Sequence record: NC_054934.1
Strand: one strand, 5' to 3'
DNA length: 64,000 nt
DNA from: Escherichia phage teqskov
Positions within the stretch are counted from its first letter, which is position 1; each line of letters opens with the position of its first letter. Positions 50,296-52,575 of the stretch are shown piece after piece. The notes under the pieces were generated by a model, which saw only the letters and a program-made list of their open reading frames with translations, did no database searches and was not told where the DNA came from. A program made the translations under genes and the position numbers.

Positions 50296-50368
50296 TGGGA
50301 ATTAGCCAAGTTGGTAAGGCATAGCACTTTGACTGCTAGATGCAAAGGTTCGAGTCCTTTATTCCCAG
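50296..50368 (+). tRNA. tRNA-Gln (anticodon TTG)
   Basis: cloverleaf folded by hand: acceptor TGGGAAT/ATTCCCA, anticodon stem TAGCA/TGCTA, loop CTTTGAC, T-loop TTCGAGT. Confidence 0.85.
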
Positions 50369-50369
50369 C

Positions 50370-50456
50370 GCGAGAATGGTCAAATTGGTAAAGGCACAGC
50401 ACTTAAAATGCTGCGGAATGATTTCCTTGTGGGTTCGAGTCCCACTTCTCGCACCA
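50370..50456 (+). tRNA. tRNA-Leu (anticodon TAA), long variable arm, encoded CCA
   Basis: acceptor GCGAGAA/TTCTCGC; anticodon stem CAGCA/TGCTG, loop CTTAAAA. Confidence 0.85.
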
Positions 50457-50461
50457 AATTT

Positions 50462-50536
<75 letters not shown>

Positions 50537-50545
50537 TTTAATTTA

Positions 50546-50619
50546 CTCCGTGTAGCTCAGTTTGGTAGAGCGTCTGCTTTGGGAGCAGAATGTCGTAGGT
50601 TCAAATCCTGCCGCGGAGA
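50546..50619 (+). tRNA. tRNA-Pro (anticodon TGG)
   Basis: acceptor CTCCGTG/CGCGGAG (one G-T pair); anticodon stem TCTGC/GCAGA, loop TTTGGGA; T-loop TTCAAAT. Confidence 0.85.
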
Positions 50620-50621
50620 CT

Positions 50622-50711
50622 GGAGGCGTGGCAGAGTGGTTTAATGCACCGGTCTTGAAAACCGGCAGTCGCTCCGGCGACTCATAGGTTCAAATCCTAT
50701 CGCCTCCGCCA
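50622..50711 (+). tRNA. tRNA-Ser (anticodon TGA), long variable arm, encoded CCA
   Basis: acceptor GGAGGCG/CGCCTCC; anticodon stem CCGGT/ACCGG, loop CTTGAAA. Confidence 0.85.
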
Positions 50712-50716
50712 GTTTT

Positions 50717-50792
50717 GCTGATTTAGCTCAGTAGGTAGAGCAGTTGACTGTTAATCAATTGGTCCATGGTTCGAATCCATGCATGTCCGCCA
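50717..50792 (+). tRNA. aberrant tRNA-like gene (Asn-type anticodon GTT) with non-pairing acceptor stem; probable chimeric or pseudo-tRNA
   Basis: D-arm, anticodon arm (GTTGA-CTGTTAA-TCAAT) and T-arm (CATGG-TTCGAAT-CCATG) fold, but 5' acceptor GCTGATT cannot pair with 3' CATGTCC (3 of 7 pairs); ends in GCCA. Confidence 0.5.
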
Positions 50793-50918
50793 AACTTGTG
50801 ACAGTTGTCACATTAATATCTACTTGACGCGATTATAGGGGTTGAACTGATCACACTTCTCTTAATTTCGTGTGAAGACATCTTGATTGTTGGAGTAGGT
50901 ATTGCTGTGAACTAATTA

Positions 50919-50995
50919 CGGGGTGTAACTCAATTGTATAGAGTAGCGGTCCTCTAAACCGCAGGTTAAAGGTTAGAATCCTTTCACCCTGACCA
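50919..50995 (+). tRNA. tRNA-Arg (anticodon TCT), encoded CCA
   Basis: acceptor CGGGGTG/CACCCTG (one G-T pair); anticodon stem GCGGT/ACCGC, loop CCTCTAA; T-loop TTAGAAT. Confidence 0.85.
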
Positions 50996-51016: not shown

Positions 51017-51571
51017 ATGAGAAGTGATGTAGACTGGGACCAAATTAATTTGGCTATAAAAGCTGGATTAATATACCATGGTAATTTTGAAATAACACAA
51101 GAACTAATTGAAAATGTTGCTTTTCTTAAAATAACAGATAAGAAAAAATTCTTTTCTATGACTGAAGCCAAACGCTTGTCAAAATGGAAAGTATTTTGTA
51201 GGACTGCCGCCCTAAATCTTTTGAAATTTAAAGATGAATTTGATATAGAAAAAAGCTATCGACAGGCTTTCGTATACATAATGGTAGATACTACAAATCC
51301 TAATTATTATAAAATAGGAAGAAGTATAGAACCTGATGTTAGAGTTATAACAGCAAATACATTTTCACCGTTTAAAAGTTTTAAAATAGTATCATTTAGA
51401 TATTCCCAGGATGCAGTAGAACTTGAAAAATATATGCACAGCATTTATAATCAGGACCATATAAATGGTGAATGGTTTTTCTTTCATGACATAAGTTCCA
51501 TAGTTAAAAAATTAGATACTAAATCTACACAATTTGAAATACCAAATGAGAAACCGGGTCGCTACCGGTAA
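51017..51571 (+). CDS. T5orf172 / GIY-YIG-like domain protein (184 aa)
   Basis: C-terminal half has VYIMVD...YYKIGRS...R......ELEKYMHSIY...GEWF, matching the T5orf172 (GIY-YIG superfamily) pattern; lies directly after tRNA-Arg. Confidence 0.55.
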   Translation: MRSDVDWDQINLAIKAGLIYHGNFEITQELIENVAFLKITDKKKFFSMTEAKRLSKWKVFCRTAALNLLKFKDEFDIEKSYRQAFVYIMVDTTNPNYYKIGRSIEPDVRVITANTFSPFKSFKIVSFRYSQDAVELEKYMHSIYNQDHINGEWFFFHDISSIVKKLDTKSTQFEIPNEKPGRYR

Positions 51572-51589
51572 GTCGTCGGACTGATGTTC

Positions 51590-51859
51590 CCTGAGTAAGG
51601 AATTGCGTTAATAATCTTTGCGTTTATTGATGCCCTCTTACATCACAGCAGAAACGGCGCACCGAATTATCGATTCGAGGAAATATCTTTGCCGTAAGCC
51701 GAGTAGCGTTTTTGACGGAACGTTCGGATATGGTCGAGATATGGCCTTTTAAAAATATTGAGTAGCGTCAACTACTTAATAACCGGGTTCAAGTCCCGGC
51801 GTTTCGTACAAACACTTGCCTTAGCAGGTGGAACCCCGACAAGGTTGCCGCAAGGCTTA
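51590..51859 (+). ncRNA. structured non-coding region, possible small stable RNA(s) as at the distal end of the T4 tRNA cluster
   Basis: no ORF; tRNA-like T-arm hairpin CCGGG-TTCAAGT-CCCGG and several inverted repeats; ends at a rho-independent terminator. Confidence 0.25.
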
Positions 51860-51886
51860 GCCCCGACCGAAAGGTTGGGGCTTTTT
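51860..51886 (+). terminator. rho-independent terminator (CCCCGACC-GAAA-GGTTGGGG then CTTTTT)
   Basis: 8-bp GC-rich stem, GAAA loop, T-run. Confidence 0.7.
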
Positions 51887-51932
51887 AGTATAAATAAGTA
51901 TATTAAAACCACGAATTAAAACAGGAAATAAG

Positions 51933-52406
51933 ATGAAATCATATGCTCAATTTTTAAATGAAGCGGTGTTAAATGAAGCATCTAGCACTGAAATTCAAGC
52001 TGTTGCAAAAGCTGCCATTGCCGCGGGTAAATATTCCTATAAAGATGCTTCCGATGAATCACGATTCCAATTTGCTCGTGATATGAAAGCCGAAGGATTT
52101 ACAGGGAATGCAGTTAGTATGGCTTGGAAAAGTTTAGTTGCTACTGGAGCTGCTTTTGCAAAGGCTTCAGGTAAACCTGCTCCTAAGGCTGATCCTAAAG
52201 CAGCACAAGAAAAAAATATTGCTAAAGGAATTATCTCTAGGTATGAAGCAATTCTTAAAGAACTTTTGATAATCAAAACTGAAGGCCAAAAGCTAGCTCG
52301 TGCTTATAGTTTCAAAGATAACCCACATGTTCACTCTCTTGAATATGTTGAAGACATCCAAAAAATTATTAAAGACCGCATTTGGTCTGCTAAACAAATC
52401 AAATAA
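51933..52406 (+). CDS. CTS-bearing putative internal (head-packaged) protein, 157 aa, Lys/Ala-rich
   Basis: N-terminus MKSYAQFLNEAVLNEA resembles the CTS with L-x-E cleavage motifs; followed by a terminator. Confidence 0.5.
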   Translation: MKSYAQFLNEAVLNEASSTEIQAVAKAAIAAGKYSYKDASDESRFQFARDMKAEGFTGNAVSMAWKSLVATGAAFAKASGKPAPKADPKAAQEKNIAKGIISRYEAILKELLIIKTEGQKLARAYSFKDNPHVHSLEYVEDIQKIIKDRIWSAKQIK

Positions 52407-52414
52407 CATTCTTA

Positions 52415-52442
52415 GCCCCAGCCGAAAGGTTGGGGCTTTTTG
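52415..52442 (+). terminator. rho-independent terminator (CCCCAGCC-GAAA-GGTTGGGG then CTTTTT), near-duplicate of the one at 51860
   Basis: stem-loop plus T-run. Confidence 0.7.
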
Positions 52443-52575
52443 GTATCTAGGCCTTTCCGGGCCTCTCTGGGCATCATTTAGTTTATACCCTTTATAATAT
52501 ATTATCCTACCTTTTAATTGTCCCTCCTGACCCTAGAATTCCCTAAAACTTTTTAAAAAATTTTTTCACAAAACT

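Follow-up and report, generated by a model that had tools for sequence, protein, structure and literature searches.

In the reference genome of bacteriophage T4 (NC_000866), the gene for the arginine transfer RNA (tRNA-Arg) is directly followed by two genes for small RNAs, rnaD (species 2 RNA) and rnaC (species 1 RNA). A review published in 2010 described the biological roles of RNAC and RNAD as unknown and stated that no trans-acting regulatory RNA of T4 had been characterized (PMC3014915). A time-resolved omics study of 2022 also listed the two RNAs as being of unknown function and classified them as late RNAs in T4 infection, with reported support from a northern blot with an RNAC riboprobe (PMC9697503). 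In 2025, an experimental-evolution study in which a T4-like phage was adapted to strain ECOR34 reported one convergent single-nucleotide polymorphism (SNP) in all of its three lines; it was located in rnaD, the function of which was again noted as unknown (PMC12685909). In the literature up to 2025 on the function of species 1 RNA, rnaC, and rnaD, with the classic processing papers outside our reach, we found only the statement "function unknown". Here, we analyze the corresponding locus in a stretch of 64,000 nucleotides (nt) from Escherichia phage teqskov (NC_054934.1), hereafter called the window, and compare it with T4 and with RNAs that imitate tRNAs only in part. Such partial mimics are the tRNA-like domain of transfer-messenger RNA (tmRNA) and the bacterial Y-RNA-like RNA YrlA, in which, as in rnaC, the acceptor/T-arm "top half" of a tRNA is placed on a non-tRNA body.

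The + strand of the window, on which the parts of the locus described below are located, carries a cluster of tRNA genes (50296-50995), in which ARAGORN and Rfam identified tRNA-Gln, -Leu, -Gly, -Pro, and -Ser, a partial tRNA match, and tRNA-Arg. The region from 51500 to 51950 was compared by blastn with 50,697 phage records, and 800 of them matched. Because nearly all of these were T4-like phages of Escherichia, Shigella, Yersinia, and related hosts, and the closest matches (99.3-99.6%) were the tequatroviruses BCH953P2, REP2, REP3, and LF82-9, the window represents the Tequatrovirus tRNA region. The 345-nt core of the locus (51546-51890) matched 810 phage records, 678 of them with a coverage of at least 80%. 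Within this core, a 118-nt homologue of rnaD (51546-51663), which covers 118 of the 119 T4 positions with one 1-nt deletion and no substitutions, is followed, after a spacer of 6 nt, by a homologue of rnaC (51670-51808; 139 nt by the annotation of NC_000866), which is identical to T4 at 136 of 139 positions and was aligned without gaps. Two of the three substitutions in the pairwise alignment of rnaC are located in the T loop (UUCAAGU in the window vs. UUCGAAU in T4), and the rnaD end also differs (ACC-G vs. ACC-A). The genes are on the same strand as the tRNA genes and upstream of the cluster terminator, in the order and position known from T4. The labels rnaC and rnaD, or species 1 and species 2, are also used in Aplg8, RB33, and RB3, the DNA of which is 94-99% identical to that of the window, and in a four-way alignment with T4, Aplg8, and RB33 the sequences are nearly identical from the first base of rnaD to the end of the terminator.

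An earlier note on this DNA had described the interval from 51572 onwards as a structured non-coding region devoid of open reading frames (ORFs), and had suggested that it may be the counterpart of the two stable RNAs of T4 or else a different structured RNA. The full-length alignment to T4, which that note had proposed as a check, and the same annotations in Aplg8, RB33, and RB3 bear out the first of these suggestions, and, given the identity with T4 rnaD and rnaC, the second is not needed. The structured region is real, but it starts at 51546 rather than at 51572, with rnaD beginning inside the upstream ORF. It is also true that the interval contains no ORF of at least 60 amino acids; the only ORFs that overlap it encode 31-53 amino acids and have TTG or GTG starts. 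Altogether, the interval almost certainly represents the rnaD-rnaC locus with which the tRNA cluster of this T4-like phage ends; a trailer and an intrinsic terminator come after it. This locus is already known and not new: the sequences of the genes date from the 1970s-80s, the T4 reference genome carries their annotation, and their re-identification carries little weight as the result of a sequence scan.

Rfam 15 contains no family for rnaC or rnaD. A covariance search with Rfam, a further check proposed in the earlier note, yielded zero families on the interval, whether the gathering threshold or E<=10 was applied, and the only match was a chance-level one to anti-hemB (14 bits), over the terminator. 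The structure of rnaC was analyzed with 27 distinct sequences from GenBank phages, IMG/VR, and metagenomes (a gapped scan of IMG/VR also gave chance matches, which were filtered out by demanding the T arm) and, in addition, with a divergent Jiaodavirus copy that was detected by the covariance model (L151, 102-244, 66.5 bits, E 6.6e-17) and is of a type found in 138 Klebsiella-phage records. Within the window, the covariance model R1 has a single match, rnaC, with 158.6 bits. Compared with shuffled sequences, rnaC folds with z = -4.5 on the + strand vs. -1.5 on the reverse complement. RNAalifold predicted a four-way junction composed of an acceptor-like stem, a long arm, a 10-bp arm, and a T arm. 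In the model-based alignment of 24 sequences, 91% of the cells pair, and compensatory changes were observed for 33 of 52 pairs, as compared with 15.5 in column shuffles and 7-13 with slid partners. The observed pairing values were reached by none of 500 shuffles, whatever the measure.

All four helical elements contribute to this result. The 5' strand of the acceptor-like stem (CGAUUCG, 51671-51677) pairs with 51800-51806 (CGUUUCG), with a tandem U.U at positions 4-5. Its third pair (51673:51804) is G-C in 15 sequences and A-U in nine, and its sixth pair (51676:51801) is C-G in 23 and U-A in one; in Jiaodavirus, U-A and A-U stand in place of the two U.U, resulting in a stem of 7 bp that are all Watson-Crick. 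The position of the D arm is taken by a long arm (51678-51747) with a three-pair AGG/CCU closing helix and the apical loop UUGACG. At least two unrelated sequence types are known for the body of this arm, unlike the junction, the T arm, and the two apical loops, which are conserved; KaAlpha, PEi20, and Klebsiella phages have a different long-arm body and retain the loop. The 10-bp arm (51756-51781), at the position of the anticodon/variable arm, has a 6-nt loop (CGUCAA) and compensatory changes in nine of its ten pairs; the inverted repeat AGTAG..CTACT to which the earlier note had pointed is present at 51761-51776 and forms its inner part. The tRNA-like hairpin CCGGG-TTCAAGT-CCCGG described in the same note is located at 51783-51799 and is the T arm of rnaC (CCGGG-UUCAAGU-CCCGG in the RNA), the loop of which retains U54, U55, C56, R57, and A58 of the tRNA T loop. 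The middle pair of the T stem is G-C in 11 sequences, U-A in 11, and A-U and C-G in one each. As judged from this covariation, rnaC is a tRNA-shaped cloverleaf without a D arm or an anticodon loop.

The apical loop of the long arm (L1, UUGACG, 51712-51717) and the loop of the 10-bp arm (L2, CGUCAA, 51766-51771) are exact reverse complements and could form a kissing interaction of 6 bp. L1 and L2 are exactly complementary in all of the 24 distinct aligned sequences, in which the states UUGACG/CGUCAA, UUGGCG/CGCCAA, and UUGCAG/CUGCAA occur. The first state is invariant in the T4, Karamvirus, Winklervirus, Kanagawavirus, and Moonvirus types despite the variable stems beneath the loops; the second is that of the kv_tblp5/Clarke lineage of Klebsiella phages, and the third that of Jiaodavirus. 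When L1-L2 is treated as a pseudoknot helix, six of six pairs are standard in all 24 sequences, with compensatory double changes in two of the six. Because the covariance model behind the alignment did not include these pairs, the alignment is not biased toward them. The co-varying complementary hexaloops indicate a kissing loop between the long arm and the 10-bp arm of rnaC. No description of this contact was found in the searchable literature, to which the original papers of the 1970s do not belong, and we do not claim priority.

The features that rnaC has in common with a canonical tRNA (RF00005) are a 7-bp acceptor-type stem that runs into a 5-bp T stem, a 7-nt U-U-C-R-A T loop, a discriminator-like U past the stem, a CCA that is encoded in some lineages, the neighborhood of tRNA genes, and tRNA-like spacers. 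Unlike a tRNA, rnaC has a variable arm of ~70 nt for the D arm, followed by a linker of 8-10 nt, and in place of the anticodon arm it has a 10-bp stem with a 6-nt loop predicted to pair with the loop of the other arm. Nothing in 51546-51900 matched RF00005 at the gathering score (29 bits) or at E<=10, and ARAGORN likewise made no call. Because it is recognized neither by the tRNA covariance model nor by ARAGORN, and because a D arm and a 7-nt anticodon loop are lacking, rnaC is best described as a tRNA mimic and not as a tRNA. ARAGORN found no tmRNA in the window, and, unlike tmRNA, rnaC has no tag ORF. The YrlA model (RF02553) gave a single weak match of 24 bits (gathering threshold 69), which is located on true tRNAs (50481-50602) and not on the interval; unlike YrlA, rnaC has no Ro-binding stem.

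In the predicted structure of rnaD, a hairpin is located near the 5' end (51553-51569). Further elements are a basal stem (GUCGUCG/CGGCG(C)AC), an inner helix, and an internal loop in which UCCCUG is conserved and unpaired. The apical hairpin is variable, with at least four unrelated versions, and the 3' tail reads ...GCGC-ACC. The alignment used (A2) contained 21 distinct sequences of the T4, Dhakavirus, Providencia-phage, and Vequintavirinae types. In this alignment 97.9% of the cells are paired, and compensatory change was observed in seven pairs (shuffles, 2.6; slid controls, 0-2); one of the seven, for example, is U:A in 12 sequences, A:U in eight, and U.U in one. The folding energy of rnaD alone is not significant (z = -1.4), and its structure is supported by covariation. 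More distant rnaD-like elements, in which the inner helix is a plain A-U helix, are present in Karamvirus (L008, ~412-504) and Jiaodavirus (L069 and L070, ~1199-1296); they were left out of the statistics because their MAFFT alignment with the T4 type was off register in P1. The loss of the predicted stems in related phages would have spoken against a structured RNA according to the earlier note; compensatory changes keep the stems of both RNAs. Several further likenesses of rnaD were considered and rejected. A hammerhead-like or K-turn motif (CUGAUG...GAAA) is countered by the base equivalent to the unpaired N7, which co-varies U:A/A:U with the opposite strand, and by the ordinary A-U helix at this place in Karamvirus and Jiaodavirus. 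A likeness to P4 of RNase P was dropped, as there was no Rfam match, and a pairing of the P1 loop with UAGCG motifs of rnaC was dropped, as the loop is not conserved in W70.

The annotated ends of the two RNAs have a bearing on their biogenesis. In the older T4 record X03016, the 5' end of species 1 RNA is the first base of the acceptor-like stem and its 3' end is one base beyond the stem, which corresponds to 51671-51807 in the window (137 nt), and the 3' end of species 2 RNA is ...GCGCACCA (...CACCA). Past the acceptor stem of rnaC, U-ACA is encoded in the T4 type and U-CCA in the kv_tblp5 type and in Jiaodavirus. A length of ~140 nt for species 1 RNA would match 137 nt plus CCA. The 3' tail of rnaD is A-CC, followed by A in T4 and the Providencia phage, by G in this window, and by another base elsewhere, and thus resembles a discriminator with a partial CCA. 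In Karamvirus, Winklervirus, Moonvirus, and Klebsiella phages, rnaC is located between tRNA genes, 5-6 nt past the preceding CCA, and the next tRNA begins a few nt downstream. Biogenesis by tRNA-processing enzymes is likely. rnaD and rnaC would be co-transcribed with the tRNA operon or transcribed from nearby promoters, and transcription would end at 51859-51887. The enzymes would excise the RNAs by recognizing rnaC through its acceptor/T-arm minihelix and rnaD through its stem-ACC end. The 5' end of rnaC would be generated by RNase P at the first acceptor base (51671), and its 3' end by exonucleolytic trimming to the discriminator U (51807) and subsequent addition of CCA by the CCA-adding enzyme. 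Such tRNA-like packaging would account for the build-up of both RNAs as stable species. A strong sigma-70-like site with 11/12 matches (TTGAAA, a 17-nt spacer, and TATAAT; 51423-51451) is located ~95 nt upstream of rnaD, in the 3' part of a nuclease-like ORF; overall, promoter-like sites are about as frequent in the region as expected by chance. This site could be a promoter of rnaD-rnaC's own, as the two genes are now split from the tRNA genes by that ORF.

The distribution of the two RNAs revealed that rnaD and rnaC occur independently in the tRNA clusters of several phage genera. In the Dhakaviruses, rnaD is fused straight to the trailer (L005 and L006, ~1617-1625), and rnaC is precisely absent. 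Because these phages keep rnaD and the trailer without rnaC, some lineages can do without rnaC, and the retention of the trailer does not depend on it. An rnaC without an adjacent rnaD was found in Karamvirus, Winklervirus, Kanagawavirus, Moonvirus, and Klebsiella phages, and Providencia phage PSTCR6 has rnaD between two tRNAs and no rnaC. A short rnaD also follows a tRNA in a small number of Vequintavirinae, a group outside the T4-like phages, namely W70 (L013, 996-1092), A73, and UPEC06 (L071, 1184-1280), and in part in LTH01. Its apical loop AGUUCNCUCAACGAUAAC is common to the Karamvirus/Jiaodavirus type, not to the T4 type, which suggests that the rnaD module was moved horizontally between phage groups. 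Blastn revealed no host or prophage copy in 5,426 complete E. coli genomes, and the rnaC 3' pattern had no match in 185,579 prokaryotic species, each represented by one genome. A metagenome scan yielded ten loci, mostly on contigs of ~130-174 kb, all with rnaC types known from T4-like phages. With a 17-mer of rnaD, 35 loci were obtained from IMG/VR, ~20 of which are chance matches in unrelated contigs that miss the 5' motif. In public records rnaC is at times mis-annotated, as a 95-nt "tRNA-Met" in PG7 (L008, 1554-1648) and as "tRNA-OTHER" in G9062 (NC_054920.1, 69607-69676); these calls by the annotators' tRNA finders are in keeping with its tRNA-like shape. Of the ~800 matching records listed, many leave the rnaC/rnaD interval without annotation or place features named "hypothetical protein" over it.

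What the two RNAs do has to be weighed against explanations that require no trans-acting RNA. They are located in tRNA clusters, and rnaC retains an acceptor stem and a T arm; both could be decayed tRNA genes or spacer fragments of the tRNA operon that are stable and have no function. A tRNA gene has probably decayed in this region, namely the pseudo-tRNA-Asn 900 nt upstream, the acceptor stem of which is broken, and the clean loss of rnaC in the Dhakaviruses would fit as well. This explanation is countered by the identity of 90-99% across hundreds of phages, by the compensatory changes that maintain the stems in every helix, and by the hexaloops, which are either invariant or co-varying, and also by the independent retention of rnaC and rnaD in different genera, for rnaD even in Vequintavirinae, and the convergent SNP in rnaD in three host-adapting lines (PMC12685909). 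That the RNAs have no function of their own is very unlikely. A role in cis, in which a structured 3' end steers how the upstream tRNA transcript is processed, stabilized, or terminated, would agree with the T4-type position at the 3' end of the operon, where a conserved trailer and a terminator follow. It is at odds with the mid-cluster rnaC and rnaD-like elements of Karamvirus, Winklervirus, and Jiaodavirus, which are separate from each other and far from operon ends, with the ORF that parts rnaD-rnaC from the tRNAs in this window, and with the description of RNAC and RNAD as discrete late RNAs (PMC9697503), and we regard it as quite improbable. Jointly, the absence of any function and a role only in cis are unlikely to be the explanation. 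That the region encodes small proteins is scarcely credible: ORFs of 44 (51618-51752) and 53 (51758-51919) amino acids exist, and "hypothetical protein" features cover the region in some GenBank records, but both ORFs have TTG starts, the first crosses the rnaD/rnaC boundary, and the second reads through the terminator. Furthermore, rnaC as a whole is deleted in the Dhakaviruses and is placed in different flanks in other genera, and the substitutions are pairwise compensatory in RNA helices.

If the RNAs act in trans, one or both of them could be small regulatory RNAs that base-pair with host or phage mRNAs via conserved single-stranded segments, e.g., UCCCUG of rnaD. The unpaired motifs of rnaD are indeed conserved across genera, and the label "small regulatory RNAs" is loosely used in the literature; the conserved loops of rnaC, however, complement each other and so are not free, and this explanation seems rather unlikely to us. 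Our best guess for rnaC, put forward as a tentative speculation, is that it works in trans as a tRNA mimic without a decoding role, by occupying or titrating a host or phage factor which recognizes tRNAs. Several points weigh against this view and the biogenesis proposed above. As discrete RNAs of this phage, rnaC and rnaD are predicted here from sequence, and the decoy is a conjecture. Because rnaC fails the tRNA models, cleavage by RNase P and addition of CCA are deduced from the geometry and from old annotation, and the records NC_000866 and X03016 of T4 differ by 1-2 nt at each RNA end. In the window, rnaD is not directly behind a tRNA but behind the 184-amino-acid ORF, which bears on the formation of its 5' end. 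Finally, the covariation of L1 and L2 comprises only two or three independent substitution events.

The 3' side of rnaC is formed by a conserved 49-nt trailer (51809-51857), which extends to the terminator, contains small hairpins at 51813-51830 and 51832-51846, and is presumably removed on maturation. It is kept in T4, Aplg8, and RB33 and also in the Dhakaviruses, though these lack rnaC, and is almost invariant across the T4-type phages and the Dhakaviruses. Together, trailer and terminator fold with z = -4.1. The earlier note had proposed an inverted repeat GCCTT..AAGGC here. Both motifs are present (51818-51822 and 51852-51856), but the helix is poorly supported. The minimum free energy (MFE) solution contains the local hairpin CACUUGC-CUUA-GCAGGUG (51813-51830), which is mutually exclusive with GCCUU/AAGGC, and T4 has AACGG or AACGC where the window has AAGGC. 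Because the 5-nt arms compete with a local hairpin and T4 lacks AAGGC, the pairing is not established. The variant GCCUAG/CUAGGU of the Dhakavirus trailer could pair. The trailer could be a processing signal or serve some other role.

Upstream of rnaD, the adjacency of tRNA-Arg and rnaD that is characteristic of T4 is broken in the window by an ORF of 184 amino acids (51017-51571) with a MUG113/T5orf172 (GIY-YIG-related) domain (PF13455, 2.6e-9; PF10544, 3.4e-6; phrog_5032, 3e-59). The final 26 nt and the stop codon of this ORF are within rnaD, and the stop is just past the 5' hairpin of rnaD. T4 has no counterpart of the ORF at this place, and its segB is on the other side of tRNA-Arg. The 11-nt junction TACCAAATGAG, which is equal to the 3' end of tRNA-Arg plus the start of rnaD in T4, is all that is kept of the T4 arrangement, suggesting that a mobile nuclease gene was inserted between tRNA-Arg and rnaD. 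Within the cluster, the sequence at 50716-50790 is tRNA-Asn-like (anticodon GUU) and 85% identical to the tRNA-Asn region of Aplg8. Its 5' acceptor strand no longer pairs with the 3' strand, ARAGORN made no call, and the Rfam match covers model positions 8-63 only; this tRNA gene has probably decayed. SegB preferentially cleaves at the tRNA-Asn gene in T2L, RB1, and RB3 (PMC2330249).

The unit of tRNA genes, rnaD, and rnaC ends in an intrinsic terminator (51859-51887, stem 51859-51882), which is also annotated in X03016 and Aplg8. A second terminator (52414-52441, stem 52414-52437) follows the next gene. In the terminator scan, both have a 10-bp stem with 7 G-C pairs, a GAAA loop, and T5; in the stem of the second copy GA is changed to AG, and both copies pair with one G.U. 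The near-identical recurrence that the earlier note had placed near 51860 and 52415 was thus found within 2 nt of these positions. The terminator 28-mer has exactly two copies in the window (with 0 and 2 mismatches), vs. 0.00 expected from shuffles. Including its flanks, the terminator belongs to a direct repeat of 36 nt (51856-51891 and 52411-52446; 92% identity, spacing of 555 nt). At the first copy, a late-promoter-like TATAAATA (51889-51896), which corresponds to the T4 late-promoter consensus, is located 37 nt upstream of the ATG (51933) of an ORF of 157 amino acids (51933-52406; phrog_2280), which is not present in T4 and corresponds to RB33_134. As TATAAATA alone is about as frequent as expected by chance in the window, with 9 and 14 copies on the two strands, it is supported by its positional conservation: the junction of terminator and TATAAATA recurs in Aplg8, RB33, two Dhakaviruses, and two T4-like contigs of IMG/VR. 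A scan for sigma-70 promoters found none in 51887-51933.

Compared with T4, TATAAATA, the 157-amino-acid ORF, and the second terminator are an insertion that is present in this window, in RB33, and in many other phages. T4 has one hybrid terminator, with a stem as in copy 1 and a downstream flank as in copy 2, and in two Dhakaviruses of the same layout terminator copies are also located behind downstream ORFs (L005, 1674-2817; L006, 1674-2297). The cassette of late promoter, ORF, and terminator would have been inserted by recombination at the terminator. Composite terminator/promoter cassettes, called PeSL, have been described in T4-like phages (Arbiol 2010, PMC2839356; Comeau 2014, PMC4122927). 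As in these, a conserved stem-loop terminator and a promoter flank small ORFs that are variably present among close relatives, and the repeat would be the recombination site. In contrast, PeSLs are defined with an early promoter, whereas here the late consensus TATAAATA is found beside the stem-loop, and the upstream copy also serves as the terminator of the tRNA/rnaC unit. As judged from these motifs, the twin-terminator unit is a terminator/promoter cassette of the PeSL kind, but with a late promoter motif. Since the second terminator is the distal flank of the inserted cassette, it is outside of the RNA locus.

As the locus itself is known, the residual value of this analysis lies in the unsolved function of the two RNAs and in the structural model obtained here. 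They are abundant RNAs whose function is still open according to the reviews and omics papers of 2010-2025, and they are without an Rfam family. The cloverleaf with its co-varying kissing loop, the U-CCA encoded in two lineages, and the independent spread of rnaC and rnaD provide handles for experiments and for the building of RNA families. It is conceivable, if doubtful, that rnaC is the founding member of a distinct class of phage tRNA mimics, with a CCA-ended top half on a body locked by a kissing loop, which is mobile among the tRNA clusters of Tevenvirinae and acts in trans on a factor that recognizes tRNAs, and that rnaD is a second, independent mobile module with a tRNA-like 3' end that affects host-specific fitness. 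If this is true, the targets of rnaC might be a tRNA-targeting defense nuclease of the host, RNase P, the CCA-adding enzyme, or another protein that binds the elbow or the acceptor of tRNAs.

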